Virus record (IMG/VR): IMGVR_UViG_2711768014_000006
Strand: one strand, 5' to 3'
Length of the DNA: 44,064 nt
From: a virus
Taxonomy: Duplodnaviria > Heunggongvirae > Uroviricota > Caudoviricetes
Part shown: piece by piece, positions 1 through 39,830 of the stretch
How the letters are laid out: the number at the start of each line of letters is the position of its first letter
How positions within the stretch are numbered: the stretch's first letter is position 1
Notes under the pieces: generated by a model
Seen by the model: the letters and a program-made list of their open reading frames with translations, nothing else
What the model was told of the DNA's origin: nothing
The model's database searches: none
Position numbers and translations under genes: made by a program

Positions 1-73
1 CTCGTCTGGGGAATATCTCCCCGGCAGCCTTCAGGGAAAAATATCATCAGATGGCTGCTTAAAAAAAGAACAA

Positions 74-304
74 ATGGTAGTGTCCGCTATTGCCAGTACA
101 CCTCAGCTATTACCTTCTTCAGAGAGCCCCCAGCTACTTCCTGTGACTCTCGATGCAGCTGCCGAACAGCCAGAATCGCTCGCAGAGGACCCGAAAACCC
201 TCAGTATCAGCTGTGAGGTAACGTTCCGGCACGGGACGCTCCGCTTCAATGGCAATGTCAGCGAAAAGCTCCTGACTCTGCTGATACAGGAACTGAAGCG
301 ATGA
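74..304 (+). CDS. IS66-family accessory protein TnpA-like (orf1), possibly truncated at the window edge
   Basis: ORF immediately upstream of and overlapping the IS66 TnpB-like ORF by ATGA. Confidence 0.5.
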   Translation: MVVSAIASTPQLLPSSESPQLLPVTLDAAAEQPESLAEDPKTLSISCEVTFRHGTLRFNGNVSEKLLTLLIQELKR

Positions 305-624
305 TCCCGTTACCTTCCGGGATCAAAATTTGGCTGGTTGCCGGTATCACCGATATGAGAAATGGCTTCAACGGCCTGGCTGCGAAAGTACAGACGGCGC
401 TGAAAGACGATCCCATGTCCGGCCATGTTTTCATTTTCCGGGGCCGCAGCGGCAGTCAGGTTAAACTGCTGTGGTCCACCAGTGACGGACTGTGCCTCCT
501 GACCAAACGGCTGGAGCGTGGGCGCTTCGCCTGGCCGTCAGCCCGTGATGGCAAAGTGTTCCTTACACAGGCGCAGCTGGCGATGCTGCTGGAAGGTATC
601 GACTGGCGACATATAACCAGGTGA
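301..624 (+). CDS. tnpB: IS66-family accessory protein TnpB (orf2)
   Basis: 107-aa product MIPLPSGIKIWLVAGITDMRNGFNGL...GRFAWP matches the conserved IS66 Orf2 family as I recall it; the C-terminus ends exactly at the prophage junction. Confidence 0.8.
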   Translation: MIPLPSGIKIWLVAGITDMRNGFNGLAAKVQTALKDDPMSGHVFIFRGRSGSQVKLLWSTSDGLCLLTKRLERGRFAWPSARDGKVFLTQAQLAMLLEGIDWRHITR

Positions 625-628
625 ATCA

Positions 629-785
629 TTTGATACCGACAAGGGGTTTAGTGAAAGGAGGTGAAATCACCTGTAAGATACTGAAATAAAACAGGTGATG
701 GCTAGATGTGCGGATAAGGTCTATTTGATACCGATTGTGCAATAATTAGTCATTTATTATAAAATCGGCAACTCATTTGATACTG
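629..785 (+). repeat. Left-end transposase binding sites (three copies of TTTGATAC[CT]G at 629-639, 724-734, 776-785)
   Basis: Spacing of ~95 and ~52 bp resembles the L1-L2-L3 arrangement of the Mu left end; the same motif occurs inverted at the right end. Confidence 0.5.
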
Positions 786-857
786 TGGTTTTAGTCTTTT
801 AAGGCGTTCCAAACAATGCGAAATACTCGATATAGTGCAAAATGCGGGCTAATGCTA

Positions 858-1403
858 TTAACCCGCTTTTGGTTCTACCGCGTTAGATTTGCGACTTCTC
901 TCAGTTTCTTCCAAAATCTCTCTGACGCGTTCGTCAGACATACCTTCAAGCTGTAATGCAGCTATTCTTTTCCTTCCTTCTAAGCGGATTAGATCTTGAT
1001 TTTCAGGCTCTAACAACCGAGCTAAGTACTTGGCTCCATTCAGAACCAAATTTTTCGATAGCTGCTCTAAGTCTTTTTCATCAAGTGCGCTGATAATCGT
1101 CATAATTATCTTCTTGCTTTCATCTTGATTTTCCTTGATCTCACACCGATTCACTTGTGATGCATCACTGAATCCACATAGCCACTCAACACTTACTCCT
1201 TCGATAGACGCAATCTGAAGGGCGACACTTAAGGATGGCTCAGTGCCACGAGACAGATAATTGTTTAGTGTTGAAAATGAAAGCCCCCAATCTCTTGCTG
1301 CAGCTCTGACGCTGCGGGAGCCAATCAGCCTTTTCAGACGCTCAGCAATGCTTTCTTTTCTACCACCAGGAAAAGAAAGAGATGTTGTTGTTTGCTTGTT
1401 CAT
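858..1403 (-). CDS. Mu-like repressor (c)
   Basis: 181-aa ORF on the opposite strand at the left end, divergent from ner/A/B across an operator-rich intergenic region; position matches Mu c. Confidence 0.6.
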   Translation of the reverse strand: MNKQTTTSLSFPGGRKESIAERLKRLIGSRSVRAAARDWGLSFSTLNNYLSRGTEPSLSVALQIASIEGVSVEWLCGFSDASQVNRCEIKENQDESKKIIMTIISALDEKDLEQLSKNLVLNGAKYLARLLEPENQDLIRLEGRKRIAALQLEGMSDERVREILEETERSRKSNAVEPKAG

Positions 1404-1588
1404 TTTCTTTTCTTCCTATCAATTTGAAATTATTAACTTTTAGTGTTGTCAGCAACCATTGATCCACAATAGACAAAAGAAAGATGTTTTTTTTGCTTTA
1501 CATGAAGCAGAAGTGGATCAATACTTATATCAAACTTGATAACTAAGTTTAGTTATCAAATTTCGTAACTTTTTAGGATAGATGAATC
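1404..1588. promoter_or_regulatory. Early operator/promoter region between repressor and ner
   Basis: AT-rich 185-bp divergent intergenic region with a perfect palindrome TTGATAACTAA-GT-TTAGTTATCAA (1536-1559) and inverted repeats TTGATCCAC/GTGGATCAA (about 1461-1469 and 1513-1521). Confidence 0.5.
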
Positions 1589-1819
1589 ATGGCGAGAAAT
1601 GAAGTTAAGCCTGATTGGCATCCTCAAAGAATTTTGGGGGAAGTCAGAGCCAGAGAAGGAAGCATGAGGGCGCTGGCCCGTAAAGCTGGCGTGGGTCAGA
1701 ACAATCTGTACAACGCGGTATACCGCCATGTTCCCAAGTATGAGGGGATTATCGCGGAATGCCTGGGGGTGCCGCCCGAGGAGATTTGGCCCAGCCGCTA
1801 CATTCGTAAGGTCGCGTAA
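1589..1819 (+). CDS. ner: Ner-like DNA-binding transcriptional regulator
   Basis: 76-aa product with ...DWH...LSRKAG...NNLYNA...PEEIWPSRY, strongly resembling Mu Ner as I recall it. Confidence 0.85.
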   Translation: MARNEVKPDWHPQRILGEVRAREGSMRALARKAGVGQNNLYNAVYRHVPKYEGIIAECLGVPPEEIWPSRYIRKVA

Positions 1820-1821
1820 TT

Positions 1822-3909
1822 ATGTTTGCTTCAGTTAAAGAACTGGTTGGATTACCGGGGATGCCGGGAACGGAGCAAGGCGTTCGCTATTCAATCAGGA
1901 AGTATGCAACCAGCGAAACCAGCAGACGCCGCAAGAAAGGCGCTAAAGGTTTTGAATACAGCATTGACTGTTTACCTGAAGTGACACAGCAGGCATTACG
2001 CGAACGTTATGCCCTGCAACTGATGACGCAAAAAGCCGATGAATCACCGGCTCCGGTGGTGACAAAGGCCAGACGCTCGTCTGCCGTGGTTGATGCGGTG
2101 GAGGCATATCGCGGATCACCACAACTGATGGTCGAACGCCTCAATGCCCTGACTGAAAACCAGCGCCAGGTGGCAGACGCACGCATTGCGATCGTCAGTG
2201 AGGTGCTGAAATTCACGCAACAACCCGGTTTCAGCTGCGCTAAAGCTATCCGGTTCCTCGTTAACAGCCTGGCACGATCACAACTGGACGAGCGCATTGT
2301 GGCAATGGTTGAGACGGCGAACGCCAAAAAGGGAAACAGCCGCGCGTTGAGTGAAATCACGCTGAAACGCTGGATTGCGGCCTTTAACAAGGCACAGAAC
2401 GCCGCTGAACGCCTGCTTTTACTGGCACCGGGTAAACGCCAGGAAATAAAAGCCGAAGATATTAACTGGCTGCCCGAATTTCTGGCGCAGTATCGCCAGT
2501 CAAACGGCCGACCAATGACCGAGGCTTACGAGGATTTTGTTGCTGAATGGCAGCACCGGCACGCTGATGAGCCTTATATGCTCGATATCATGCCCTCTTA
2601 TGACACCATTCGCCGCGCAATGAAGAAACTGCCGGAAGTGGTGAAACAAAAAGGCCGGGTAACTGGCAGTGAATACCGTCAGCTTGAGGGATTCACGCGC
2701 CGCGACTGGTCCAGAATGCCGGTGAATTATGTCTGGATTGGTGACGGTCACGGCATGAAGCTGAAATGCGCGCACCCGGTTCACGGGCGGCCATTCGCAC
2801 CGGAAGTGACCTTTGTTATCGACGGTGGCACGCGCTTTGTGGTGGGCTGGAGCCTTGACCTGGCTGAAAATGTTTTCGCCGTAGCCGGTGCCATACAGCA
2901 CGGTATTCGCCATCATGGCAAACCGTTTCTGTATTACTCGGATAATGGCTCCGGGGAAACCGCCGACGTCCTGGATAAGGAGATTGTGGGGATACTGCCA
3001 CGACTGGGGATTAATCACCCGACAGGGATTGCCGGTAATCCGCAGGGACGGGGCATTATCGAACGGCTTAACCGCACATTACCGATGCGCATAGCCCGTA
3101 AATACCGCACCTATTTCGGGAAAGGAGCAGATCGCGAGACGTTACGTAAAACCAACCGCGATTTACGCTCGGCATTCAGTGCCCTGCAACAGGGCAAACG
3201 GCTGAACGCCCGGCAGCAGTCAGCGATGCGTGATTTACCGTCCTGGTCTGAACTGATTGATGCCATTCGTGACGGTGTTGAGTGGTACAACAACCGGCCG
3301 CACGATGAATTACCCATGAAGCCGAACGGTAAACATTACAGCCCGGCGGAGTTCAGAAAAAAACGCCTGGCGGAAGAGGACACGGAAATTGAATGGCTGT
3401 CCGATGTTGAACTGCGGGATATGTTCCGGCCGATGGTGGAGCGCCCTGTAAGACGCTGTGAAATACGCTGGCTGAATAATATTTACTACGCGCCCGAGCT
3501 GCGTGACGAGCATGGCCGTAAGGTACTTATCAGCTATGACATTCATGATGCCGAACGAATTACCGTGCGCCGCCCGGATGGCAGCGTGATTTGCGAGGCG
3601 GTATGGGACGGCAATAAACGCGAAGCCTTCCCTGTCAGCGCGGAATACTACAAACAGCAGCAGCGCCTTAAAGGCATGCGTAAACGCGCAGAGGAAAAAA
3701 TCCGTGATGCCGAGGATGAGGTTGTCAACGTGCTGGAGCACAAGCCGCAGGAGCCCTGGCTGGAAAACATATACCGCCCTGTGGGTAATACGGTGACCGT
3801 TCAGCAACCGGTCGCTGACGATGAACCTGATGAAGAATACGAGCGTAATTTCCAGCGGGGATTGCAACTGCTCGAAGCGAAATTAAAAGAAAGTGATCCG
3901 CTGGCCTGA
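1822..3909 (+). CDS. Mu-type DDE transposase A
   Basis: 695-aa ORF directly after ner; length and position match MuA. Confidence 0.9.
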   Translation: MFASVKELVGLPGMPGTEQGVRYSIRKYATSETSRRRKKGAKGFEYSIDCLPEVTQQALRERYALQLMTQKADESPAPVVTKARRSSAVVDAVEAYRGSPQLMVERLNALTENQRQVADARIAIVSEVLKFTQQPGFSCAKAIRFLVNSLARSQLDERIVAMVETANAKKGNSRALSEITLKRWIAAFNKAQNAAERLLLLAPGKRQEIKAEDINWLPEFLAQYRQSNGRPMTEAYEDFVAEWQHRHADEPYMLDIMPSYDTIRRAMKKLPEVVKQKGRVTGSEYRQLEGFTRRDWSRMPVNYVWIGDGHGMKLKCAHPVHGRPFAPEVTFVIDGGTRFVVGWSLDLAENVFAVAGAIQHGIRHHGKPFLYYSDNGSGETADVLDKEIVGILPRLGINHPTGIAGNPQGRGIIERLNRTLPMRIARKYRTYFGKGADRETLRKTNRDLRSAFSALQQGKRLNARQQSAMRDLPSWSELIDAIRDGVEWYNNRPHDELPMKPNGKHYSPAEFRKKRLAEEDTEIEWLSDVELRDMFRPMVERPVRRCEIRWLNNIYYAPELRDEHGRKVLISYDIHDAERITVRRPDGSVICEAVWDGNKREAFPVSAEYYKQQQRLKGMRKRAEEKIRDAEDEVVNVLEHKPQEPWLENIYRPVGNTVTVQQPVADDEPDEEYERNFQRGLQLLEAKLKESDPLA

Positions 3910-3991
3910 AATAAAAAAATAACCCGAGGGGTGACTCAGGTTATTTGAGGTTTCAGTCTCGGAGAATGCTGTCTCAAGCGAGGTGAATAAT

Positions 3992-4924
3992 ATGACCGAT
4001 ATTAACGATGTAATCAAGACCATTGATGAACTTATTGATGGCGGCGTACTGACGCAGTATGCCATCGCCAGAGAGGCGGGAATTTCCGACGGCACATTAT
4101 CGGCTTTCCGTAAGGGAAAATATAAAGGCGATAACGCTGCTGTGGCTGCTTCCCTGCGCTCCTGGTATGAGAACTGGAATAAACAAAGCGCACTGCCGGA
4201 ACCGCCGCAGTTTGTGGAAACTCAGACAGTCCAGGAGCTGCGCGCACTGTTTCAGGCGGTTCGCCTGATGGGCTGTATTAACGTTATTGTGGGCGTACCG
4301 GGTGTGGGTAAAACGGCCACTGCCCGTAATTACTGCCAGGAGCAACCAAACACCTGGATGATCACCCTGTCACCCGCGCACTCCAGCGTCACGGAGTGTC
4401 TGCTGGAGCTGGCCGATGCGCTGGGGATTGATTACACCCGCGCGAACAAAGGGGCATTATCCCGCGCCATCCGCCGTCGCCTGATGGGAACGCGTGGACT
4501 GGTGATTGTGGATGAGGCGGATCATCTTGGTATTGACGGTCTGGAGCAACTCCGGGCAATTCAGGACGCCACGGGGATCGGGATGGTGCTTATTGGTAAC
4601 CCGCGCGGATTGTTTAAAGGTGGACGCCGCGCCTTTGATGATTTATCGCGCCTGTTCAGCCGTCTTGCCCGTACAAAACAACTTCGCAAGGCCAAAAAGG
4701 CGGATGTGCTGGCCATTGCCATGGCGTGGGGGATCAGTGGTGAGGCCGAGCTGGCCGTCATGCAGGCTATCGCTGAAAAGCCGGGAGCGTTACGCGTTCT
4801 GACACATACGCTTAACCAGGCGTGGCTCACCGCCAGCGGTGAAGGCGCGGCGCTGACAGAAAAACATATTAATGCGGCCTTTAAAGAGGTTTATACCAAC
4901 CCTGAATTACTCTCACAGGTGTGA
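3992..4924 (+). CDS. Mu B-like ATP-dependent target DNA activator
   Basis: Walker A motif GVPGVGKT; N-terminal HTH region resembles MuB; ATG at 3992 preceded by GAGG. Confidence 0.85.
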   Translation: MTDINDVIKTIDELIDGGVLTQYAIAREAGISDGTLSAFRKGKYKGDNAAVAASLRSWYENWNKQSALPEPPQFVETQTVQELRALFQAVRLMGCINVIVGVPGVGKTATARNYCQEQPNTWMITLSPAHSSVTECLLELADALGIDYTRANKGALSRAIRRRLMGTRGLVIVDEADHLGIDGLEQLRAIQDATGIGMVLIGNPRGLFKGGRRAFDDLSRLFSRLARTKQLRKAKKADVLAIAMAWGISGEAELAVMQAIAEKPGALRVLTHTLNQAWLTASGEGAALTEKHINAAFKEVYTNPELLSQV

Positions 4925-4926
4925 TT

Positions 4927-5148
4927 ATGGCGGTATTTAATATTCCTGATATTTACGGACGCTTTTACCTGGTTAATTTCGATAACGTGAAGGTGATTTC
5001 ACTGGCCGAAAATAAAGAATGTGGCGATTTACTTTTTGAATTTAATGACCGCACACGAATGGTGATATCTGCCGGACTTGATCGCGAAGGTGCGACAGAA
5101 GTTTACAGCGGAATATGCCGTTCTGTTGGTGCGAAACAAGTCAGCTAA
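4927..5148 (+). CDS. Hypothetical early protein (Mu kil position)
   Basis: 74-aa ORF immediately after B, translationally coupled. Confidence 0.45.
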   Translation: MAVFNIPDIYGRFYLVNFDNVKVISLAENKECGDLLFEFNDRTRMVISAGLDREGATEVYSGICRSVGAKQVS

Positions 5149-5160
5149 ATGAGGTGTTAT

Positions 5161-5415
5161 ATGAATATGCAATCCTGCGGTAACAAAATGAATTTATTCG
5201 ACTCCCTGAACAGCGCGCGCCGTCTGACCGAACTTGCCGGTGCGGTACTGGAACGCAGTAAGCGCTATCCGCAACGTTTTGCACTGAAAACCACGCCGCC
5301 GGTAGGCAACGTGCAGGGAACCGGTGAAATTGAAATCACCATACAGACCAACGGCCTGCGCCGCCGTGTGAAGGCCACCCGCATCAGCGGCTGCACGGTT
5401 TACTGGGAGGTGTGA
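5161..5415 (+). CDS. Hypothetical early protein
   Basis: ORF with ATG at 5161 following AGGTG. Confidence 0.4.
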   Translation: MNMQSCGNKMNLFDSLNSARRLTELAGAVLERSKRYPQRFALKTTPPVGNVQGTGEIEITIQTNGLRRRVKATRISGCTVYWEV

Positions 5416-5416
5416 G

Positions 5417-5698
5417 GTGAAAAAAAATCTCATTGCATGGGCGTGGTCGAGTGGTCTTATTGAGTTTGGTTACGTCCTGCCGGAAGGTGCATTGCCGATA
5501 GTTGCCGGAAAGCCTGCCACGGTACGGCATGTGATTGAGGTTATGGCGCGTCATGGACGTGATGAACAGGAGCAGTTACTGGTTCCGGGGATACCGGAAG
5601 CGGTGACGGAGGAAGAAGCCTTTAATGCCATGATTCGGTTCTGCCGTGAGGTTAGACGCCGGGTCAGTTATCCAAACAGAACGAGGACCAGAGGATGA
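5417..5698 (+). CDS. Hypothetical early protein
   Basis: GTG start 6 nt after GGGAGG; 93 aa. Confidence 0.45.
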   Translation: MKKNLIAWAWSSGLIEFGYVLPEGALPIVAGKPATVRHVIEVMARHGRDEQEQLLVPGIPEAVTEEEAFNAMIRFCREVRRRVSYPNRTRTRG

Positions 5699-5967
5699 GT
5701 AAAGTCGTACGCATTATTTTCGAATACAAGGAAGATGTTATCTGCAAAAACTCTGATGGCAGCACGCACAGAGGGGTAAGTCTGGATATACGTTCAACCG
5801 GAATAAAGAAGAAAGATAATGGACCCGCCATGATTTTTGGGGTGGTTATGCTGGCAGAAAGCAGAAACTTCGCAGAGTTTGTGGCAATGAAAGCCAGTGC
5901 ATTCATGAAAGACAGAGGCATGGCTTCCGGGGTTATTAACGGTAATGAATTTAATCAACAGGGGTAA
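5695..5967 (+). CDS. Hypothetical early protein (tandem paralogue 1)
   Basis: Starts MSKVVRIIFEY; resembles the next ORF. Confidence 0.45.
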   Translation: MSKVVRIIFEYKEDVICKNSDGSTHRGVSLDIRSTGIKKKDNGPAMIFGVVMLAESRNFAEFVAMKASAFMKDRGMASGVINGNEFNQQG

Positions 5968-5971
5968 TTCC

Positions 5972-6265
5972 ATGAGCAAAGTACGCGTTATTTTTGAATT
6001 TAATCATGTTTCGCATGACGAAAAGTTGGCAGGCAATGACTGTGTTGAAGTGCATGAAAAGATTGGAGTGGATGTGAAAACAGAACGTGATACGGATAAC
6101 AGGCCGACGTCACTCTGTGACGTTTATGCAAGTATTCTCCAGTATCACAGTCCTGCAATTATTCAGTTTCTCTCAGCGGAATTTCAGGCATCTGCACAGT
6201 CTTTTGGAGCGGATGCCATCATTAAACGCCACCGCGTGCATAAAGCATCAGGCACACTGCAATAA
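5972..6265 (+). CDS. Hypothetical early protein (tandem paralogue 2)
   Basis: Starts MSKVRVIFEF; resembles the preceding ORF. Confidence 0.45.
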   Translation: MSKVRVIFEFNHVSHDEKLAGNDCVEVHEKIGVDVKTERDTDNRPTSLCDVYASILQYHSPAIIQFLSAEFQASAQSFGADAIIKRHRVHKASGTLQ

Positions 6266-6276
6266 GGAAAAACAAA

Positions 6277-6807
6277 ATGGCTAAACGCGTTACAAAATTA
6301 AAGGCCGCAGCCGAGGCGGCACCGCAGACCCGGGAAGAAGTCAGCCGTGATATCCGCACCCTGGGAGATATTCAGCGAGAGGCGCTGCGCCTGGAAACGG
6401 CGATGAATGACGAAGTGGCAGAAATCACCGCCCGTTATACGCCGCAGATTGAAAATCTTAAAAAGCAAATCAAAGTGCTTTTTAAAGGGATTCAGGACTG
6501 GTGCAAAACCAACCGTGATGAGCTGACGAACGGCGGCAAAACCAAAACAGCCAATCTGACCACCGGAACGGTGTCATGGCGGCTGGGAACGCCATCATGC
6601 AGCGTCAGCCGTGATGTGGAAGGTGTGATTGAAATGCTGCGCCGTATGGGGCTTGAGCGTTTCATCCGCACGAAAGAGGAAGTGAACAAGGAAGCCGTCC
6701 TGGCGGAGCCGGATGCTGTGAAAGGCATTGCCGGTATCAAGGTGAATAAAGGCGCTGAAAGTTTTTATGTCGAGCCTTTTGAACAGGACGCCGGACTGAA
6801 TAAATAA
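6277..6807 (+). CDS. gam: Gam-like host-nuclease inhibitor (DNA end-binding protein)
   Basis: 176-aa product with Mu Gam-like sequence and position. Confidence 0.85.
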   Translation: MAKRVTKLKAAAEAAPQTREEVSRDIRTLGDIQREALRLETAMNDEVAEITARYTPQIENLKKQIKVLFKGIQDWCKTNRDELTNGGKTKTANLTTGTVSWRLGTPSCSVSRDVEGVIEMLRRMGLERFIRTKEEVNKEAVLAEPDAVKGIAGIKVNKGAESFYVEPFEQDAGLNK

Positions 6808-6952
6808 CACCGCATTAATCAATTAAATATCACTTCATTTTAATTATGGCGCTCGCGTCAGGGGACTGCTTGCGCCTGAAAACAGAAAATAAGGGTTAAG
6901 AAATATGAAATACGTTTATATCGTCATTAATAATGTGGTGGGGAAATAAATC

Positions 6953-7486
6953 ATGATTGATGCAAAAGTGCTTGAAGGGGTTAAAAACTGGCTGTGTATT
7001 TATGGCCGCCTGACCTGCGGTGTACTGGCTGAAAAAATGAATATGCCGCCATCCTCCATGGTTTATTTTCTGCGTGATGCGGTTGATGCAGGCGTGCTGA
7101 CGGAATGTAACGGTTTTTATGATATTCCGCGTCCCCGCCCGGTGCAGCCGGTTCGTCGCAAATGCAGCCAGGAATCTGCGGCTGATGATGTTCAGTGGTG
7201 CGGCTTCAGAAAATCCCTGCCATGGATTGAGGGGCATGATATTCCGTCGATGGCGTGGGAATTTGCTCAGGGCGTTCTGACCTGTGAAACCGTTTATGTG
7301 GTGGCTGAAGTTGATGAGCAGGCCATGAAAGAAGGCGTGCCCCAGTTTGTGATGGCGTATATCGACATACGCCTGGGCGTCATTATCTGCGGTTTAAGCG
7401 GCTGGAATATCACTGAACATGTTCTGCGCTACCTGATTGTTGACCGGACAGCAGCGCCTGCCGGGATATCTGCGGAGGTGGCGTAA
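6953..7486 (+). CDS. Hypothetical protein
   Basis: 177-aa ORF with RBS, after a 145-bp AT-rich intergenic gap. Confidence 0.5.
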   Translation: MIDAKVLEGVKNWLCIYGRLTCGVLAEKMNMPPSSMVYFLRDAVDAGVLTECNGFYDIPRPRPVQPVRRKCSQESAADDVQWCGFRKSLPWIEGHDIPSMAWEFAQGVLTCETVYVVAEVDEQAMKEGVPQFVMAYIDIRLGVIICGLSGWNITEHVLRYLIVDRTAAPAGISAEVA

Positions 7487-8001: not shown

Positions 8002-8004
8002 TGC

Positions 8005-32253: not shown

Positions 32254-33134
32254 TGTTTCATGTTGATAATAATTCCGGCGTGGCGAATATGCCTGCGCTG
32301 GCACCGGCGCAGAGTAATACCACCACCTGGTTTACCGAAGGTGACGGACAAAAAGGTATCAGCTGGATTGGTCAGGACTGGCTGAATATTCTCCAGGCCG
32401 AACTGCTGAATATTCTGGCTGAAGCCAGTATTCAGCCGGATAAGGCGCAGTTAAACCAGCTTACGCTGTCCATTAAAGCCATTATCGCTGCGAATGCCTT
32501 TTCCCGGAAAAATAACCTGAAAGAAATTGCTGATGCCGGTGCGGAGGCCCAGCGTCTGGCCCGTGGTTATCTTGGTCTGGGGACGCTTGCCACAAAAAAC
32601 AGTCTTGGTCCCGCTGACGTTAATGCCCTGGCGAAGGATCAGAATCTCGCCGACCTGGAGAATAAGGGAACCGCCCGTAATAATCTGGATGTTTACAGCA
32701 AAAGCGAAGGTGATAACCGTTACCTGCGCAGGGAGCAGAACGGCGCAGACATTCCGGATAAAGGGGCTTTTATCGATAACGTCGGTTTACGGGAAACGGT
32801 AAACAGGGCGGCGAATGCCCTGCCATCGGACGGCACCGCCGTTGCCGCGAACAGGCTGGCAAATGCCCACACAATTAATGGTGTTCCCTTTGACGGGACG
32901 CAGGATATCACTATCTCATCAGGAACAGTAACCGCCATAAGACTGGGGTCGGTGACCGCACATATGCCCGGAACATGGGAAAGCTGGGATCTGAATCTGG
33001 GGGGCGGCAATGTTCTTACCGGAATTAAAGTACAGGATGTCGGTAAGAATACGGCAGATAACGTCGGCGGCGTGTATTACCGGCCGTTGCAGTATCTGTT
33101 AAATGGAGCATGGGTGACGGCTGCAAGTATATAA
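32253..33134 (+). CDS. Tail fibre protein S (constant part plus the currently expressed variable part)
   Basis: 293-aa ORF; its 3' portion from about 32783 lies inside the invertible segment. Confidence 0.75.
32783..32851 (+). repeat. Left inverted repeat of the invertible tail-fibre segment (contains the recombination site)
   Basis: 69 bp, identical except one mismatch to the reverse complement of 34031..34099. Confidence 0.65.
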
Positions 33135-33143
33135 TGATATTCA

Positions 33144-33167
33144 GAAGGCCTTCCGGCCTTCTTTATT
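33144..33167. terminator. Bidirectional terminator hairpin between convergent S and tail-fibre-assembly genes
   Basis: GAAGGCC-TTCC-GGCCTTC followed by TTTATT. Confidence 0.5.
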
Positions 33168-33687
33168 ACTGTGGCTGCTCAGGCCATTTAATGGCGTTAA
33201 ATTCAGCTTCTGTTTTAATGGCGGGTAGTTCCATTTTCTTCACCTGACTGATGTATGCCATCCATTGGGTAAGTGCTGCTCTGTCTTCATCGCTGATGGT
33301 GCCCAGTTGTAGCTCCGTTCTCCAGTCATTAATTTTTTCATATGCCTGATTAAGATATGACTGGCGCATTGCTTCCAGTTTTCTTGCGTAGTTAACCGGA
33401 ATACGGGAGATTATGCCATTATCAAACTTCCAGTTTCCTGAAATATCCGTGCCTTCAGGGAGTTCATCGACCTCAACCACAGAAAACCCCGCAGGATACA
33501 GCGCCGAGGCGTCCTGTGATATTGAGCAGATAACGCCGCTGTCAGGTGTTATGCAAAGTTTATATTTTTTGGTGAATAATGGCAGGGATTCGTAGAAATC
33601 CTTACCATCTTCACTCTGGAAATACTGAACATTATTACCATATGGCATATTTTCAGGATAATAACGGGTTATATTTTTTAGTTCCAT
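33166..33687 (-). CDS. Tail fibre assembly protein (U'-like) inside the invertible segment
   Basis: 173-aa minus-strand ORF with AGGAGG RBS. Confidence 0.75.
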   Translation of the reverse strand: MELKNITRYYPENMPYGNNVQYFQSEDGKDFYESLPLFTKKYKLCITPDSGVICSISQDASALYPAGFSVVEVDELPEGTDISGNWKFDNGIISRIPVNYARKLEAMRQSYLNQAYEKINDWRTELQLGTISDEDRAALTQWMAYISQVKKMELPAIKTEAEFNAIKWPEQPQ

Positions 33688-33740
33688 AAAATCCTCCTGG
33701 AAATAAATCTGTTTTAAAATATATTATTTACTGACTATTT

Positions 33741-34099
33741 ATAACTGAGATACCGTAATCCATGTACCTCCGACTAATTTTTGCAGGGGTCTGAATGCTA
33801 TAAAATCGTTTGAAGCATCAACTTTACTGTCAATCTGCAGGCCTGCCATAACATTACCGTACGCAGAGTAATATGCCCCACCGTACATTACCTGCCTGTT
33901 CTCTGCTCCCAGCCTGATATCCTGGATATATCGGGAATCCGCATCCTGCTGTGTTATACCAGAAGTGATGTTTATGTCCTGCGTCCCGTCAAAGGGAACC
34001 CCATTAATATTTCTTGGGGTGGCGAGTCTATTCGCGGCAACGGCGGTGCCGTCCGATGGCAGAGCATTCGCCGCCCTGTTTACCGTTTCCCGTAAACCG
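33741..34099 (-). CDS. Alternative tail-fibre variable segment (S'v), no start codon of its own
   Basis: Minus-strand reading frame continuous with the S frame through the inverted repeat, ending ...GTWITVSQL at a TAA (plus 33741-33743); would be fused to the S constant part after inversion. Confidence 0.4.
34031..34099 (-). repeat. Right inverted repeat of the invertible tail-fibre segment
   Basis: Reverse complement matches 32783..32851. Confidence 0.65.
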
Positions 34100-34177
34100 A
34101 GGTTTTCAGGAAAGCCAGGATTAACTCTGTTTTATTCCTCATGCGACAATTCCGGCTTTTTATAATAAGGAAATCGT

Positions 34178-34750
34178 ATGCTGATTGGGTATATCAGGGT
34201 GTCAACAAATGACCAGAATACGGCGCTACAAAGAAATGCGCTGGAATGTGCAGGATGTGAGCTGTTTTTCGAAGACAGAATAAGCGGTAAGACAAGGGAG
34301 CGTCCCGGACTTAAACGCGCATTAAAGCGACTCCGGCCAGGGGATACCCTGCTGGTCTGGAAACTGGATCGCCTTGGACGCAGTATGCAGCACCTTGTCC
34401 TTTTAACAGAAGAACTCCGGCAACGCGGCGTTAACTTCCGCAGCATTACGGACAATATTGATACATCCACTCCCATGGGACGTTTCTTTTTCCATATAAT
34501 GGGCGCGCTGGCGGAAATGGAGCGGGAACTCATTATTGAACGTACACGCGCGGGTCTTGCTGCTGCCCGTGCTCAGGGGCGTCATGGCGGCAGACCTCAG
34601 AAACTGACAGAGAAAGAGCGGGAGCAAATCGCCCGTTTGCTGGCTAATGGCGAGTCCCGTAAACAAATCGCACTGATATTTGATATTGGCCTTTCCACCC
34701 TTTATCGTTATTTTCCTGCCTCACCAGCTCCGTCACCAAAAGTACCGTGA
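34178..34750 (+). CDS. gin: Serine DNA invertase (Gin/Hin/Pin family)
   Basis: MLIGYIRVSTNDQNTALQ... with catalytic Ser and C-terminal HTH; sits just outside the right inverted repeat. Confidence 0.9.
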   Translation: MLIGYIRVSTNDQNTALQRNALECAGCELFFEDRISGKTRERPGLKRALKRLRPGDTLLVWKLDRLGRSMQHLVLLTEELRQRGVNFRSITDNIDTSTPMGRFFFHIMGALAEMERELIIERTRAGLAAARAQGRHGGRPQKLTEKEREQIARLLANGESRKQIALIFDIGLSTLYRYFPASPAPSPKVP

Positions 34751-34835
34751 CGCTTTTTTGAATTTCCGCAAAACACATATTTTTCAGCGGTCGCTATTCT
34801 GACTCTGTTTAATTCAGAAACAGGCAGAAAAGACG

Positions 34836-36890
34836 ATGTCAGACTCCAAGTGGAAAATGCTCTCCGCCATGCCCGGAGAGTTTTCAGTCAAGGTTGCCGG
34901 TGGCACGGTGGCATTTATTGAAAGCCCTTTCCGCCCTTCGGGTAATAAAGGGGGGATCACCTTCGCAGACTGCGTGATCCGCTTCAGCACGAAAGAGCCA
35001 TTATGGGTAATGCCGGTATCCGGTAATCCCAGTGCAGAAATCACCAGTTCAGGCGTGACTGGCATCATTCCAATCACATCTGACGTGGCCGGAACGCTCA
35101 CGCCCTCCGACTGGAATGCACCGGATAACGCCGGGCCTTCCGGTAGCACGAATGGCAGCAGTTCAGAGCCGGAATATTACTTTGTTGTCATTCTCGCGGG
35201 TCAGTCAAATGGCATGGCCTACGGCGAGGGGCTGCCGTTACCGGATTCGTTTGACCGCCCGGACCCACGCATTAAGCAACTGGCACGCCGCAGTACGGTA
35301 ACGCCCAACGGTACGTCGTGTACATACAACGACATCATTCCGGCAGACCACTGCCTGCATGATGTTCAGGATATGAGCGGGATAAACCACCCGAAAGCTG
35401 ATCTGGCAAAAGGCCAGTACGGGACTGTCGGTCAGGGGTTGCATATTGCCAAAAAACTGCTTCCCTATATCCCACAGAATGCCGGGATACTTCTGGTGCC
35501 CTGTTGTCGTGGCGGGTCAGCATTCACCACTGGAGCCGACGGCTCATTCAGTGAGGCCAGCGGTGCTTCCGCTGATTCTTCACGCTGGGGGGCCGGTAAA
35601 CCTCTGTATCAGGACCTGGTAAGCCGCACCAAAGTCGCGCTGGCGAAAAACCCGAAAAACAAACTTCTGGCTGTGGTCTGGATGCAGGGAGAGGCAGACC
35701 TTGCCTCAGGAAGCCAGCAGCATAATAGTTTATTCACGGCCATGGTTCAGCAGTTCAGAACTGACCTGGCTCCGCTTGCTGCGCAGTGCGTGAGTGGAAA
35801 TGCCACCACGGTGCCGTGGATTTGCGGTGATACCACGTATTACTGGAAAAACGCTGGCACCGATAAATATGAGGCAGTATACGGTGGCTACAAAGGCAAG
35901 GAAGCACAGAAAATTTTCTTTGTACCGTTCCTGACGGATGAGAATGGACAGAGCACGCCAACGAATGCTCCGGCGGAAGACCCGGATATTGTGGCTGTCG
36001 GGTATTACGGTGCAGCATCCCGAACCCAGGGCAGTTTTGTTTCGACACAGCGTGACAGCCATTTCAGCTCATGGGCACGCAGGGGCGTCATTTCAGACCG
36101 TCTGGCCTCAGCTATTATGCTCCATGCAGGGCGCACGGCTGAACTGATGCGTGGGCAGACCGTGACACCACCGGATGAGAAGCCGTCACCTGATACACCA
36201 TCAAAACCGTCCACGCCACCCGCAGACACCACGACGATGAGTACGCTATTTGCTTACCGGGCATCTGAGTCTGAAGGACGGTTGACACCACAGGGTTGGG
36301 CTGCCGGAGGTGGCAAGGCTCAAATCGTGGATGATGCCGGAGCCAGCGGGGGTAAGGCAATGAAACTGACCAAGGAAACAGGAAGAGCCCCCTGGTACCT
36401 TGAGCATGATGCTGGTAATGGTGCGGACCTGCTGGGTAAAGGTGGTCTTGTCAGTTGTCGTTTTAAACTCGATGGCGCGCTTACGGCTAATCAGTACGCA
36501 CTGGCGCTGTACTGGCCGGTTTCTGCCCTGCCGCAAGGGGTTACTCTGGAAGGAAATGCCGGTCATAACCTGCTGGCATCGTTCTACGTACAGAGCGATG
36601 CCACAGACCTTAACGTGATGTATCACAAAGGAAACACGGCGCAGAACACGAAGCTGGGGTCATTCGGCGCATTTAATAACGAATGGCATACGCTGGGCTT
36701 CCGTTTTGCCGGTAACAACAGTATTGAGGTGACGCCGGTCATTGATGGTAAGGACGGGACACCATTCATGCTGTCGCAGTCTCCGGTCGGCACGTTTACG
36801 GCAGACAAGTTGCGCGTGACCGATATCACTAAAAATGCGACTTACCCGGTACTGATTGACAGTATCGTGGTGGAAGTGAATAACGCGTAA
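34836..36890 (+). CDS. SGNH/sialate-O-acetylesterase-domain protein with N- and C-terminal extra domains (NanS-p-like prophage esterase candidate)
   Basis: Motif YFVVILAGQSNGMAYGEGLPLPD (GQSN esterase motif) about 130 aa in; Pro/Thr-rich linker then a C-terminal beta-rich domain; 684 aa. Confidence 0.6.
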   Translation: MSDSKWKMLSAMPGEFSVKVAGGTVAFIESPFRPSGNKGGITFADCVIRFSTKEPLWVMPVSGNPSAEITSSGVTGIIPITSDVAGTLTPSDWNAPDNAGPSGSTNGSSSEPEYYFVVILAGQSNGMAYGEGLPLPDSFDRPDPRIKQLARRSTVTPNGTSCTYNDIIPADHCLHDVQDMSGINHPKADLAKGQYGTVGQGLHIAKKLLPYIPQNAGILLVPCCRGGSAFTTGADGSFSEASGASADSSRWGAGKPLYQDLVSRTKVALAKNPKNKLLAVVWMQGEADLASGSQQHNSLFTAMVQQFRTDLAPLAAQCVSGNATTVPWICGDTTYYWKNAGTDKYEAVYGGYKGKEAQKIFFVPFLTDENGQSTPTNAPAEDPDIVAVGYYGAASRTQGSFVSTQRDSHFSSWARRGVISDRLASAIMLHAGRTAELMRGQTVTPPDEKPSPDTPSKPSTPPADTTTMSTLFAYRASESEGRLTPQGWAAGGGKAQIVDDAGASGGKAMKLTKETGRAPWYLEHDAGNGADLLGKGGLVSCRFKLDGALTANQYALALYWPVSALPQGVTLEGNAGHNLLASFYVQSDATDLNVMYHKGNTAQNTKLGSFGAFNNEWHTLGFRFAGNNSIEVTPVIDGKDGTPFMLSQSPVGTFTADKLRVTDITKNATYPVLIDSIVVEVNNA

Positions 36891-37034
36891 GCAGGATAAA
36901 AAAATGCCGCCGGTAAGGGAAAACAAGAAACCGGCGGCAAAAAGATCGTTATATCCAAAGCAAAAAATGCAGTGCACCTTTTTACCTAACAGATATTACC
37001 GGTGTCAACACCATGTCAATAATTGGGAGGGATA

Positions 37035-37217
37035 ATGACATTTTTACAGCTTATTTTATTGTATTTCTGCACGGCAGTATGTGCGTTATATCTGGTGAGT
37101 GGTGGTTATAAGGCCATCAGAAATTATGTTCGCCGCAAAATTGAGGACGCAGCAGCTGAAAAACTCAGTAAAACAGCGCAGGTAACTCCGCTCCCAAAAG
37201 ACCCGACCCAGCCCTGA
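37035..37217 (+). CDS. Small membrane protein
   Basis: ATG at 37035 after GGGAGGG; N-terminal hydrophobic helix FLQLILLYFCTAVCALYLV. Confidence 0.4.
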   Translation: MTFLQLILLYFCTAVCALYLVSGGYKAIRNYVRRKIEDAAAEKLSKTAQVTPLPKDPTQP

Positions 37218-37252
37218 TTGCAGGGCTTTATTCCCGCATAAGGAGGATATAC

Positions 37253-37507
37253 ATGCCAGAAATTAAAGGCACCGTCACTGAAGACCTGGTAAAACAGGCA
37301 CTGTATTCCGGTGAAGTAAATAAGTTGCTGAAAGCGCAGGTCCGCAAGGATTTTGAGGCACAAATCGACACTTACGTTGATGAAGTGCTGGCAAAACTTA
37401 TTGGGCCAGCAGTTGCGGCCAGTGATGCTGATAATGAGCCGAAAACCGACGCGCAGCCAGAGCAACCAGACCCGGCTCAGCCCGGAACTGACAGTACCAT
37501 GATGTAA
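37253..37507 (+). CDS. Small acidic hypothetical protein
   Basis: AAGGAGG RBS; 84 aa with Pro/Asp/Glu-rich tail. Confidence 0.45.
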   Translation: MPEIKGTVTEDLVKQALYSGEVNKLLKAQVRKDFEAQIDTYVDEVLAKLIGPAVAASDADNEPKTDAQPEQPDPAQPGTDSTMM

Positions 37508-37513
37508 CAATAC

Positions 37514-37539
37514 AAACCGGTGGTGTCCTCTGCCGGTTT
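37514..37539. terminator. Possible bidirectional terminator hairpin between convergent small genes
   Basis: AAACCGG-TGGTGTCCTCTG-CCGGTTT between the plus gene ending at 37507 and the minus gene ending at 37675. Confidence 0.35.
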
Positions 37540-37674
37540 GACACTAATGAAAACATCTTTGCCGCTATCCAGCCATATGTAATCGCTGGATAGTATTTCG
37601 TATTCAGAAATATAGCTGCTTATGGAGCAGTCAATCCTGCTTCCCCATCCGGGCAGGCAAATGAACCGGTATCA

Positions 37675-37968
37675 TTAGTCCGATTCACGCTTTTGTAGAA
37701 TCGTTCCCAGAATGCTATACAGCTCATTAGCCTGTTGCTCCATCATTGAGACGGAGGCTATACGGTGCAAAGTGATTTCAGGAGGTGGCACACCTCCATC
37801 TTCTTGCTGTGGAGGAAAAACATAAGATTTAATAAAAAAGTTGAAGCATATGAACTCTCCCGCACTCGAACTGTATTTGCAGGCATCTGAATAATCGGAA
37901 AAATAATCATTATAGATTTCCGCATTTTCAATCATTTTTCGATTTCTCGTCGTTACATGATTGTCCAT
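37675..37968 (-). CDS. Hypothetical protein (minus strand, AT-rich)
   Basis: 97-aa ORF with AAGAGG RBS, divergent from com-mom. Confidence 0.4.
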   Translation of the reverse strand: MDNHVTTRNRKMIENAEIYNDYFSDYSDACKYSSSAGEFICFNFFIKSYVFPPQQEDGGVPPPEITLHRIASVSMMEQQANELYSILGTILQKRESD

Positions 37969-38091
37969 AGCAGCCTCTTACGCTGGCAATTAACCAATTG
38001 ACTTCTATAAATTAGTTGATTTGTTTGCTTTGCGGTATTCAAATGTACAATCATTCAGCACTTATGCGTTACAGCACCGTTTAAAATTAGT

Positions 38092-38177
38092 GATCAAACT
38101 CATAAATTTTCGCTAATGACATTTCGTGTTATTTGTTGTATCAATTAAATAAATCAAATCGATCGTTTTTGTCGATC
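38092..38177 (+). promoter_or_regulatory. Three GATC sites upstream of com-mom (candidate Dam-methylation-sensitive control region)
   Basis: GATC at 38092, 38161 and 38174 in an AT-rich divergent intergenic region; parallels the Mu mom control region. Confidence 0.35.
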
Positions 38178-38224
38178 GATTGAGTGATAAAGATATCAAC
38201 AACAAAGCAGGAGGTTATGCGGCC

Positions 38225-38425
38225 ATGTATCGAAACATACGGTGCCGACATTGTAACAAGCTACTGGCACGAGCCAGCTTCAGTTATCTGGAAGTTAAAT
38301 GTCCGCGCTGTAAAACCCTCAATCAAATCACATCTCAGAGCGCCACAGAGCACCCCACATACACAAGGAAATCCTGTCGTGGGGAACAGAAAGCAAGTTA
38401 CATCCCGTATCATCAGCACGCCTGA
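38225..38425 (+). CDS. com: Com-like zinc-finger translational activator
   Basis: [35 protein letters not shown]... closely resembles Mu Com (IRCKNCNKLL...IRCPRCK); AGGAGG 10 nt upstream of the ATG. Confidence 0.7.
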
Positions 38426-39116
38426 ACTTATTCACTATAACGACAATATCGTCGGTTATGGCTCCCGTGAGTTACGGGTTGAGACAATAAGTTGCTGGCT
38501 GGCCCGGCTGGTCGTCGTCAATAAACATTACAGCCATCGTTTCGTAAATAATTCCTACCTTCATCTGGGCATATTTTCAGAACGGGAGCTGGTTGGCGTA
38601 ATGCAATGGGGTTATGCCCTTAATCCAAACAATGGTGCACGCGTCGTAACTGGCACGCAGAACCGCGAATATATGGAGCTTAACCGGTTATGGCTGCATG
38701 ACTGTATGCCGAGAAACTCCGAATCAAGGGCAATCAGTTACGCGCTCAAACTAATCAGACAACTTTATCCGCAGGTGCAGTGGGTTCAGTCGTTTGCAGA
38801 TGAGCGTTGTGGCTGTCTTGGTGTCGTGTACCAGGCAAGCAATTTTGATTATGTAGGCAGTCATGAAACAACATTCTATGAACTTGATGGCGAGTGGTAT
38901 CACGAGATTTGCAAGAATGCAATCAAACGAGGAGGACAGCGAGGTGAACATCTGCGGGCTAATATCGACAGAGCCAGTGTTCATAAATTCCGTCAGTTTC
39001 GTTACATCCGGTTTCTGGACAAGAGAGCCAGAAAACGCCTTAACACAAAGCTATTCAAAGTCCAGCCTTACCCAAAACCACAAACAGTTAAAACTGGTTT
39101 GAAAGAGAGTGAATGA
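38379..39116 (+). CDS. mom: Mom-like DNA modification protein; start uncertain (the open frame extends upstream to 38184)
   Basis: Frame overlaps the 3' end of com as in Mu; a GTG at 38379 gives about 245 aa, close to the ~241 aa I recall for Mu Mom. Confidence 0.55.
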
Positions 39117-39161
39117 ACGCTTAAAAACTCATTCTAAAACTCAAAAGAAAAGCGCCGATTT

Positions 39162-39230
39162 AGTATCAAATAAGTTGCGTATCGGCGTTTTTCAGCGGTA
39201 TCAAATGAAATGCAAATCGGTATCAAAAAA
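39162..39230 (-). repeat. Right-end transposase binding sites (three contiguous inverted copies of the TTTGATAC motif)
   Basis: AGTATCAAA (39162-39170), CGGTATCAAA (39197-39206), TCGGTATCAAA (39218-39228); contiguous like Mu R1-R3. Confidence 0.5.
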
Positions 39231-39274
39231 ATCGCCGCGCTATAGACAGCCTAAGCGGCTGCTGACCTCCCTGA

Positions 39275-39830
39275 CCATGCTGTAAATCTCTTTATCCTGG
39301 TTGTCACAGAATAAGCCCGGTAAAATACGGGCTTATGAACGACATCTCTTCTGACGACATCTTCCTGCTGAAACAGCGCCTTGCCGAACGTCAGTTGAAA
39401 ACGAAACCGCTGCTGAAATCCCTGGAAAGCTGGCTGCGTGAAAAGATGAAAACCCTGTCGCGACACTCAGAACTGGCGAAAGCGTTCGCATATGCCCTGA
39501 ACCAGTGGCCGGCGCTGACGTACTATGCAGATGATGGCTGGGCTGAGGCGGACAATAACATCGCTGAAAATGCGTTGCGGATGGTCAGTCTGGGCCGCAA
39601 AAACTACCTGTTCTTCGGTTCGGATCATGGAGGAGAGCGGGGAGCGCTGCTGTACAGCCTGATCGGGACGTGCAAACTGAACGGAGTGGAGCCAGAAAGC
39701 TACCTCCGCTATGTCCTTGACGTCATAGCCGACTGGCCGATAAACCGGGTCGGCGAACTGCTCCCCTGGCGCGTAGCACTGCCGACTGAATAACACATTC
39801 CCGTCAATACGGTTCTTGCTGCACGCTTAC
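39275..39830 (+). mobile_element. IS66-family element, right portion, ending at the IS terminus
   Basis: Reverse complement of 39813-39830 is GTAAGCGTGCAGCAAGAA, the GTAA-type terminal repeat of IS66-family elements as I recall it. Confidence 0.55.
39335..39793 (+). pseudogene. IS66-family transposase TnpC, C-terminal fragment (about 150 of ~520 aa)
   Basis: ...ADDGWAEADNNIAENALRMVSLGRKNYLFFGSDHGGERGALLYSLIGTCKLNGVEPESYLRYVLDVIADWPINRVGELLPW matches the conserved C-terminus of IS66 transposases; the N-terminal two thirds are absent. Confidence 0.75.

Follow-up and report, generated by a model that had tools for sequence, protein, structure and literature searches.

A complete Sp18-type Mu-like prophage with a 4-bp target-site duplication inside tnpB of an already decayed IS66 element

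In the window, that is the whole stretch of 44,064 nucleotides analysed here, a complete Sp18-type Mu-like prophage of 38,633 bp (612-39244) was identified inside the tnpB gene of an IS66 element, after nucleotide 311 of 348 and within codon 104 of 115. With a probability of roughly 93%, the arrangement arose when an intact Sp18-type phage entered, by simple transposition, the 3′ end of tnpB of an IS66 copy that was already dead. An earlier note on this DNA had recognized a Mu-like prophage interrupting one IS66-family element, and a Mu-family prophage does lie between two IS66 pieces; its placing of the insertion at the tnpB/tnpC junction has to be corrected. The features on which this reading is built are as follows.

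1..105, plus strand: terminal 3′ part of an IS3-family (IS600-like) element, cutting off IS66 tnpA (100% over 105 nt to an IS3-family pAA plasmid fragment)
106..611, plus strand: left piece of the IS66 remnant, with the tnpA 3′ portion (106-304) and tnpB nt 1-311 (301-611) (pAA IS66 match; Pfam TnpB_IS66, E=1e-37)
608..611, unstranded: GACA, left copy of the 4-bp target-site duplication (both junctions read directly)
612..39244, plus strand: complete Sp18-type Mu-like prophage, termini 5′-TATAACCAGG...GCGCTATA-3′ (cross-genome homology edges; end-to-end alignment)
39245..39248, unstranded: GACA, right copy of the duplication (direct junction reading; IS66 homology resumes at 39245)
39245..39285, plus strand: displaced tnpB 3′ end (..QPKRLLTSLTML, stop 39283-39285; pAA IS66 match, compared with the intact TnpB translation)
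39335..39793, plus strand: tnpC lacking codons 19-378 through an in-frame internal deletion, so that 152 of 512 aa remain (full-length comparison; Pfam)
39372..39389, plus strand: deletion junction, sole remaining copy of the 18-bp repeat AACAGCGCCTTGCCGAAC (aligned base by base to the two sides of the full-length element)
39794..39830, plus strand: right-hand end of IS66, closing with ..GCACGCTTAC at 39830, where ISEc22 and pAA IS66 homology stops
39847..41632, plus strand: older-prophage remnant into which IS66 had inserted, with an N-terminally truncated tail fibre and DUF4376 (Pfam phage_tail_N from profile position 34; RefSeq annotation of matching loci)
41997..42359, minus strand: ssrA (tmRNA), chromosomal anchor of the older prophage (ARAGORN; Rfam RF00023, 296 bits)

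IS66 homology ends at 611 and is picked up again at 39245, while homology to the prophage, seen at unrelated sites of about a dozen E. coli genomes, starts at 612 and ends at 39244; the comparison with related Mu-like phages that had been proposed for defining the termini gave these two positions. Although no target duplication had been thought visible, GACA stands on both sides of the prophage, and the intact target, GACTGGCGACAGCCTAAGCGG, carries a single GACA in 10 empty-site loci. Junctions taken by BLAST-anchored extraction showed perfect 4-bp duplications in all 10 independent insertions of the prophage lineage, and the annotation of GenBank LC727895.1 includes a 4-bp “duplication due to insertion”. 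The lack of a 5-bp repeat is therefore to be expected at this prophage, and the 4-bp duplication, where 5 or 6 bp is the usual mark of Mu-like phages, is a trait of the lineage and no argument against transposition. Three other placements were tried and rejected; 1- a 5-bp duplication with one mismatch (CGACA versus AGACA), as only 2 of the 10 insertions agree at the fifth base, 2- termini moved by one base, from which direct repeats never result, and 3- a true end at the internal TG (622), since copies at different sites are homologous from 612 onwards. The prophage termini are TA...TA, those of Sp18-type relatives TG...TA and those of Mu TG...CA.

Near-identical copies of the prophage reside in sgrR, a MASE1/diguanylate cyclase gene, bcsA, elyC/ydcF, paaA, xdhA, an ABC transporter gene and Stx phages, besides the IS66 tnpB described here; such unrelated sites are those of transposition rather than of site-specific integration. 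IS66 is highly repeated, in up to 43 places per genome, and some draft contigs differ upstream of window position 106, which would be in keeping with a contig misjoined through repeated IS66 sequence. Such an artefact is nevertheless extremely unlikely, as both junctions show the lineage-typical duplication and the left junction recurs in a closed 4.9-Mb chromosome (99.97% identity) as well as in 110 index blocks. Since the chimeric 107-aa TnpB created by the insertion recurs in these 110 blocks of the exact-protein index, including closed chromosome CP176614.1, the insertion is genuine and inherited.

On the left side, window 106-611 differs from the full-length pAA IS66 by 2 mismatches in 506 nt (99.6% identity). 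The IS66 homology begins at 106 (pAA position 401), behind IS3-family sequence; about 61 tnpA codons are lacking, as is the left inverted repeat. Matching E. coli loci of window 1-105 are assigned to the IS600 family by RefSeq, and in Shigella loci the IS3-family element is contiguous with 100-aa and 272-aa HTH_Tnp_1/rve ORFs. The earlier note was thus right in seeing IS66 tnpA/tnpB sequence at the left, yet its “orf1”, though made of tnpA sequence, is 5′-truncated and fused to the end of the IS3-family element. Neither does tnpB stop exactly at the junction, as had been stated; its homology breaks off at 611 in codon 104, phage DNA supplies the stop codon (622-624), the last 12 codons are replaced by 4 phage-encoded ones, and the native 3′ end lies beyond the prophage at 39245-39285. 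In draft contigs L028 and L029 this chimeric tnpB is preceded by a tnpA of full length; they may represent a second context, or their assembly may have run through another IS66 copy.

On the right side, where window 39245-39389 is 98.6% identical to the pAA IS66, the tnpC ORF retains its native start and first 18 codons and then continues with codon 379. The sequence read earlier as the C-terminal third of tnpC plus the IS terminus (39335..39830) does hold a short ORF and a terminus at 39830, but the ORF is internally deleted and not deprived of its start. The missing segment, previously put at about 1.1 kb, measures exactly 1080 bp and lay between 18-bp direct repeats at tnpC nt 38-55 and 1118-1135; with it the LZ and zinc-finger domains and DDE domain profile positions 1-194 (Pfam) were lost. 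Plasmid matches (H26-H28) taken for the same deletion were discarded, being really tandem ISEc22 and ISEc8 copies. A functional IS66 has both terminal inverted repeats and intact tnpA, tnpB and DDE tnpC, and is flanked by an 8-bp target duplication. Here the right terminus is present up to 39830 and reads as the reverse complement of GTAAGCG, the left inverted repeat; the left end itself is no longer present at the locus and tnpC is without most of DDE_Tnp_IS66. The copy is a non-functional remnant.

Adjacent deletions are a known outcome of Mu transposition, and with about 1.1 kb of tnpC absent near the prophage, the earlier note had considered a Mu-type insertion at the tnpB/tnpC boundary in which an adjacent deletion removed the tnpC N-terminus. 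We give this scenario almost no credence. The deletion does not touch the prophage but starts 128 bp from its end (39244), with 127 bp of uninterrupted IS66 between them (from the tnpB 3′ end across the intergenic region to tnpC codon 18) and its endpoint at 39372-39389; the target duplication is perfect where this scenario requires none; and the same deletion occurs in ten prophage-free loci. Precise excision would not rescue it, since it would not leave behind both the deletion and a lone GACA, and Mu-type phages are not known to excise precisely at appreciable frequency.

Indeed, the deleted 152-aa TnpC was found with exact identity in 457 index blocks, and in each of the 10 loci displayed an intact 115-aa TnpB precedes it with the prophage absent, the same IS3 element lying upstream in nine of these loci and the same tail-fibre remnant downstream in all ten. 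When the two window flanks were joined, nine prophage-free loci aligned to them without gaps over 1492 bp (99.4-99.7%), and the tenth (L025) from base 106 over 1,387 bp. The decayed IS66 is present without the prophage in Shigella genomes including S. sonnei 53G, as a 5′-truncated tnpA, the intact TnpB and the deleted TnpC; the empty sites, known only via the exact-protein index, are Shigella assemblies. Among 5,426 complete E. coli genomes, none had a single-piece match to a synthetic empty site or to the tnpC deletion junction. Searched for as an exact 44-mer, the deletion junction had 0 matches in GTDB representative genomes and 0 in JGI metagenome contigs, and the right junction predicted for the S. 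sonnei 53G tail-fibre insertion had 0 matches in a metagenome scan. Beyond about position 41256 the window is unlike the Shigella loci, with no ipaH and an indel of ~120 bp in the tail-fibre remnant, so that these comparison genomes are relatives and not the direct ancestor. Since an identical tnpC allele adjoins intact tnpB in ten prophage-free loci, the tnpC deletion is older than the prophage insertion, and the missing segment is unrelated to the arrival of the phage.

Against type references, the two pieces do look different: the left is 97.9% identical to type ISEc8 and 83.7% to ISEc22, whereas the right is 99.6% identical to ISEc22 and 86.7% to an ISEc8-like copy. The earlier note had named such a difference as something that would refute its reading. 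It would be in keeping with rearrangement between two IS66 copies, the other origin considered there, with the prophage segment placed between pieces of different origin by recombination or replicative transposition. Yet the natural full-length IS66 of pAA is the same ISEc8/ISEc22 mosaic, with its switch within the interval deleted here, and fits both pieces (99.6%, 98.6% and 98.9% identity). GACA is duplicated at the two junctions, and in the prophage-free loci both pieces are contiguous, within an ungapped alignment and between the same outer flanks, which leaves this origin very improbable; any inter-copy recombination at the tnpC junction would be earlier than, and independent of, the phage. 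Aligning the flanks to an intact IS66 did map the breakpoint (611/39245), but the subfamily difference expected to be diagnostic was misleading. IS66 copies are mosaics, and a subfamily-mismatch test can therefore falsely signal rearrangement.

Simple transposition into a dead element would then have followed two earlier, unrelated lesions. In one, the IS3-family (IS600-like) element would have taken away the left inverted repeat together with the initial ~61 codons of tnpA; in the other, slippage or short-homology recombination between the 18-bp direct repeats may have produced the 1080-bp in-frame tnpC deletion. The MuA-type transposase would have linked the two phage ends (TATA...TATA) to the target at phosphates with a 4-bp stagger, and subsequent repair would have given the GACA/GACA duplication. 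Beyond the change of the tnpB end, the insertion would have had no further consequence for a non-functional IS, and the prophage may still be inducible.

The prophage itself is complete and collinear with its relatives; that of E. coli 600029 aligns to it end to end in one alignment (99.74%). Its content comprises the following.

612..786, plus strand: left attachment end, three transposase-binding repeats (ATTTGATACCGA) at 628-639, 723-734 and 775-786 (terminal site in register with the right-end site)
858..1403, minus strand: c-like HTH repressor (weak Pfam HTH_3, below cut-off; RefSeq relatives are transcriptional regulators)
1589..1819, plus strand: Ner-like early regulator (Pfam HTH_35, E=1e-21)
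1822..3909, plus strand: MuA-type transposase, 695 aa (Pfam Mu-transpos_C 2e-17, HTH_Tnp_Mu_1 1e-8)
3983..4924, plus strand: MuB-type AAA+ transposition protein (Pfam Phage-MuB_C, AAA_22)
6277..6807, plus strand: Gam host-nuclease inhibitor (Pfam Phage_Mu_Gam, 5e-42)
10184..33134, plus strand: Mor, lysis, head and tail morphogenesis genes, every ORF uninterrupted (ORF list; collinear with annotated relative L033)
32775..34107, unstranded: invertible tail-fibre segment (86-nt inverted repeats 32775-32860 / 34022-34107)
34178-34750: invertase adjoining the invertible segment (Pfam Resolvase, 2e-51)
34836..36890, plus strand: cargo gene not in Mu, coding for a 684-aa protein with SASA esterase and DUF6645 (Pfam; conserved in Sp18-type relatives)
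38225..39116, plus strand: com (38225-38425) and mom (38379-39116) (Pfam Mom 2e-77; RefSeq annotation of a 99.7% identical relative)
39163..39244, plus strand: right attachment end, three transposase-binding repeats (39163-, 39198-, 39220-; GTATCAAA...)

The Mu-type character is seen in a MuA-type DDE transposase and its MuB-type AAA+ partner beside a c/ner early region, and in a late set of Mor, DUF935 portal, gpF, gpT head, sheath, tube and baseplate genes along with Gam, the Gin segment and com/mom, recognized by Pfam (Gam, Resolvase, Mom), by collinearity with the annotated 99.74% relative and by the inverted repeats of the invertible segment. The transposase-binding repeats are inverted between the ends (three at 628-786, three at 39163-39235); the terminal sites of the two ends, being in register, agree at 29 of their first 50 positions.

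Sp18 of E. coli O157:H7 Sakai and Sp18-like STEC phages (e.g. Mu_JNE122137, LC727895.1; PMC10132054, PMC2669165) share the gene order (c, ner, then A, B, then gin, the DUF6645 gene, com and mom), the right end ..GCGCTATA, the transposase-binding repeats and the 4-bp duplication with the window prophage, whose lineage is described as Sp18-like (PMC10132054). They differ in the left terminus (TGTAACC, against TATAACC in the window) and in the immunity region, which is about 79% identical over the first 370 bp, with a repressor of 176 aa instead of 181 aa. Nucleotide identity to the window prophage is 77-96% in the aligned blocks of one Sp18-type copy (L012), ~93% in Stx-phage-borne copies and 99.6-99.9% within the window's own sub-lineage, found in several non-O157 E. 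coli. With Mu (NC_000929) the prophage has in common a transposable temperate lifestyle, MuA- and MuB-type proteins, three transposase sites per end, Gam, Mor, the Gin invertible segment, com/mom and effectively random insertion sites, but its transposase is only 23% identical to MuA (BLASTP, E=1e-13) and its B protein 48% identical to MuB (E=6e-97), the end-binding sites are unrelated in sequence, cargo absent from Mu lies between gin and com, and TA..TA with 4 bp replaces TG..CA with 5 bp. The 5-bp duplication of Mu is documented (PMC8705779), as is one of 6 bp in the transposable Pseudomonas phage B3 (PMC8705779), which departs from Mu in the opposite direction and belongs to another host and lineage. 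As for the IS66 family (ISEc8, ISEc22 and the O104:H4 pAA copy), the tnpA-tnpB-tnpC order and right inverted repeat are kept, with 98.6-99.6% identity to pAA, whereas the left inverted repeat, the tnpA 5′ end and tnpC codons 19-378 are gone and tnpB is split by the prophage.

The prophage type is already known and the arrangement is ordinary, one mobile element inside the wreck of another; it matters little, and the exact insertion is already in public Shigella/E. coli-type assemblies. The 4-bp duplication with TA termini, against 5 bp and CA in Mu, is the sole mildly notable side result. A published 4-bp duplication in Mu-like phages was not found in the searchable literature, duplication data are absent from the SfMu paper, and the trait appears in the annotation of one GenBank record. 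Perhaps, at somewhat less than even odds, the Sp18-type lineage, with a transposase ~23% identical to MuA, uses a 4-bp target stagger and TA 3′ termini in transposition; if this is true, it departs from the rule of 5/6 bp and CA by which transposable prophages are recognized. Sp18-type Mu-like prophages leave a 4-bp scar with TA ends and no 5-bp scar, and pipelines or readers seeking 5-bp duplications and TG/CA ends will misplace their boundaries or infer spurious rearrangements.

The window holds two pieces of one IS66-family element on either side of a Mu-like prophage, next to an older and decayed prophage, in the following order:

1-105: last 105 bp of an IS3-family (IS600-like) element
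106-611: left piece of the IS66-family element
612-39244: Mu-like prophage, 38,633 bp
39245-39830: right piece of the same IS66 element
to the right of IS66: older decayed prophage, with an N-terminally truncated tail-fibre gene and a DUF4376 gene
41997-42359, minus strand: ssrA (tmRNA)

In a megablast search of 5,426 complete E. coli genomes, the IS66 homology of the left flank stops at base 611 (..GACTGGCGACA) and that of the right flank resumes at 39245 (GACAGCCTAAGCGG..). About 12 E. coli genomes carry a near-identical prophage (99.5-100%) at unrelated loci, and there the homology extends from 612 to 39244. The junctions of four such insertions were read; their termini, 5'-TATAACCAGG...GCGCTATA-3', are identical, and each insertion sits between perfect 4-bp direct repeats (AACA, TACG, GACG and TAGA). 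The repeat of the window prophage is GACA, at 608-611 and 39245-39248, and five more divergent relatives, fetched whole, likewise have 4-bp repeats (GTGA, TGTG, GGCG, ACAT and AGAG). Thus, 4-bp duplications were seen in 10/10 insertions of the lineage resembling Sp18 of O157:H7 Sakai (the window and comparison loci L002-L009 and L012-L016), and the fifth base matches in just two of them, which is the level expected by chance. The earlier note was right that a 5-bp duplication is absent, yet a target duplication is present; none of 5 bp could be seen because this lineage duplicates 4 bp. A modest by-result concerns the scar left by transposition: these ten insertions support 4-bp rather than 5-bp target duplications for the Sp18-type lineage. 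No paper discussing a 4-bp scar for Mu-like phages came up in full-text literature searches; such a scar is recorded in the GenBank annotation of LC727895.1, where two 4-bp repeat regions labelled “duplication due to insertion of Mu_JNE122137” give independent support.

The insertion point was mapped against the full-length IS66 copy of plasmid pAA of E. coli O104:H4, which matches the window at 99.6% over 106-611, 98.6% over 39245-39389 and 98.9% over 39372-39833. The phage had been placed at the tnpB/tnpC boundary, with tnpB stopping exactly at the junction. Neither placement holds, because the native tnpB tail (..QPKRLLTSLTML*) picks up at 39245-39285; the insertion lies inside tnpB, after nt 311 of 348 and within codon Q104 of 115, and the stop codon at 622-624 is phage DNA (product end ..DWR-HITR*). 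The resulting chimeric TnpB of 107 aa, made of IS66 sequence and four phage codons, occurs in 110 blocks of an exact-protein index of assemblies, including the closed chromosome CP176614.1, whose copy is 99.97% identical to the prophage over its initial 3 kb. The junction is thus genuine and has been inherited clonally. In two draft contigs (L028 176-556 and L029 73-462), the tnpA upstream of this chimeric junction is full-length (126-129 aa), and the sequence parts from the window before base 106; this reflects either an assembly routed through a different IS66 copy or a second context in the genome.

On the right, the ORF at 39335-39793 has the authentic tnpC start and its initial 18 codons (MNDISSDDIFLLKQRLAE), followed by codon 379. 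The reported loss of about 1.1 kb of tnpC was confirmed, base by base, as an in-frame deletion of exactly 1080 bp (360 codons), but what remains is not the C-terminal third alone. The deletion takes out the leucine zipper, the zinc finger and roughly two-thirds of the DDE domain. Two 18-bp direct repeats, AACAGCGCCT(G/T)GCCGAAC, bound the deletion at tnpC nt 38-55 and 1118-1135, and one copy is left at 39372-39389; such scars point to slippage or short-homology recombination as the probable cause. The nearer deletion edge lies 128 bp from the prophage end, and the IS66 sequence between them is unbroken.

Alignment of the two IS66 pieces to different subfamilies had been named in the earlier note as a refutation of its reading. 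Against type references the pieces do differ, the left being 97.9% identical to an ISEc8-like copy vs 83.7% to ISEc22 and the right 99.6% to ISEc22 vs 86.7% to the ISEc8-like copy. Yet the natural pAA element is mosaic in the same way and changes type at about tnpC nt 740-890, within the deleted interval; the comparison would therefore lead to a false refutation or a false call of rearrangement. In alignments of the pAA element (L001 and L011 vs L010), the ISEc8-like stretch (97-100%) reaches to around tnpC nt 740, and the ISEc22-like one (99-100%) starts at around nt 890.

The order of events was read from loci lacking the window prophage. The 152-aa deletion product, a unique marker, was returned in 457 index blocks by exact-identity lookup. 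In all 10 loci listed (L017-L026), including HE616528.1 of Shigella sonnei 53G (PMC5447701), an intact 115-aa TnpB lies directly upstream of this product and a tail-fibre remnant as in the window lies to its right. The IS3-family element is at the left in 9 of the 10 listed, L025 having different ORFs there, and ipaH-type genes are nearby in 8, with a Mu-like prophage in their place in 53G. A synthetic empty site (window 1-611 joined to 39249 onward) aligns ungapped across the junction over 1,492 bp at 99.4-99.7% in nine loci, and in L025 over 1,387 bp, starting at base 106; each of the ten has an intact target with a single GACA. Therefore, both the tnpA 5' truncation and the tnpC deletion are older than the prophage, which made a clean simple insertion. 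The earlier note tied the tnpC loss to an adjacent deletion at phage insertion or to rearrangement between two IS66 copies, whereas these loci place the tnpC junction before its arrival, whatever made that junction; what the note observed was partly confirmed, and its interpretation was largely wrong.

We propose that an IS66 element entered the tail-fibre gene of the ssrA-linked prophage, that its left end was then lost to an IS3-family element, and that 1080 bp of tnpC may have been deleted between the 18-bp repeats, by slippage or short-homology recombination. In one lineage, an Sp18-type phage would then have transposed into the tnpB remnant; the scars suggest a 4-bp stagger. The first three steps are earlier than the last, because the empty-site loci have them without the window prophage.

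Over 39847-41996 the window differs from the ten loci: its tail-fibre remnant is shorter than theirs by about 120 bp of a repeated segment. Near 41257-41621 it has some 365 bp more than they do, and it continues into ssrA with no ipaH gene, which in those loci comes after DUF4376. The source genome is thus related but not identical to those Shigella strains. In 53G (L019), the prophage is a different one of Sp18 type, in the tail-fibre remnant about 1.1 kb right of the tnpB site. Its uninterrupted target reads GCGCTG followed by CCAGGTGAAT (L019 5119-5140; window 40309-40324). The 10-mer CCAGGTGAAT equals positions 6-15 of the phage left end and occurs only twice in the window (617-626 and 40315-40324), vs 0.08 expected by chance.

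Among the prophage gene products are a transposase of MuA type (Mu-transpos_C, HTH_Tnp_Mu_1), an ATPase of MuB type, Ner, Gam, an invertase of Gin type, Com and Mom. Each end has three transposase-binding repeats, and an invertible tail-fibre segment lies between 86-nt inverted repeats. The copy in E. coli 600029, for which RefSeq annotates a full set of Mu-type genes, gives a single end-to-end match (38,634 columns, 99.74%, one gap). The closest deposited phage relatives of the window prophage (~93%) are regions labelled “inserted Mu-like phage” in Stx phages; their similarity to Sp18 has been described (PMC10132054), and Sp18 itself is predicted intact and is packaged (PMC2669165). At the DNA level, Mu, D108 and SfMu are related to it only remotely, where “it” is the window prophage. 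The transposase (1822-3909) is 23% identical to MuA and the B protein (3983-4924) 48% to MuB, a strikingly uneven divergence that agrees with unrelated end-binding sites and a different duplication length. The Mu record ends in TG..CA, whereas the window prophage has TA termini; within the Sp18-type lineage the right end is TA-3' and the left start is TA (window type) or TG (Sp18 type). The recognisable scar in reviews is 5 bp for Mu and 6 bp for B3 (PMC8705779). The 4-bp duplication and TA termini are the sole departure from textbook Mu; the arrangement is ordinary, the phage lineage is already known, and interest is low.

The spacer at ~18068-18150 (minus strand), between the head-morphogenesis (F-like) and virion-morphogenesis (G-like) genes, received no call by ARAGORN or Rfam, and its fold is no more stable than shuffled sequence (z = -1.05); it has a long terminal stem and a canonical GGUUCGA T-loop arm, and RefSeq relatives annotate it as “tRNA-OTHER”. 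Between gin and com/mom, a cargo block that Mu lacks (34836-37968) contains a 684-aa protein with SASA (sialate O-acetylesterase-like) and DUF6645 domains, two small ORFs of DUF1378 and DUF826 type, and a minus-strand 97-aa ORF with no Pfam match. The DUF6645, DUF1378 and DUF826 genes are conserved among Sp18-type phages.
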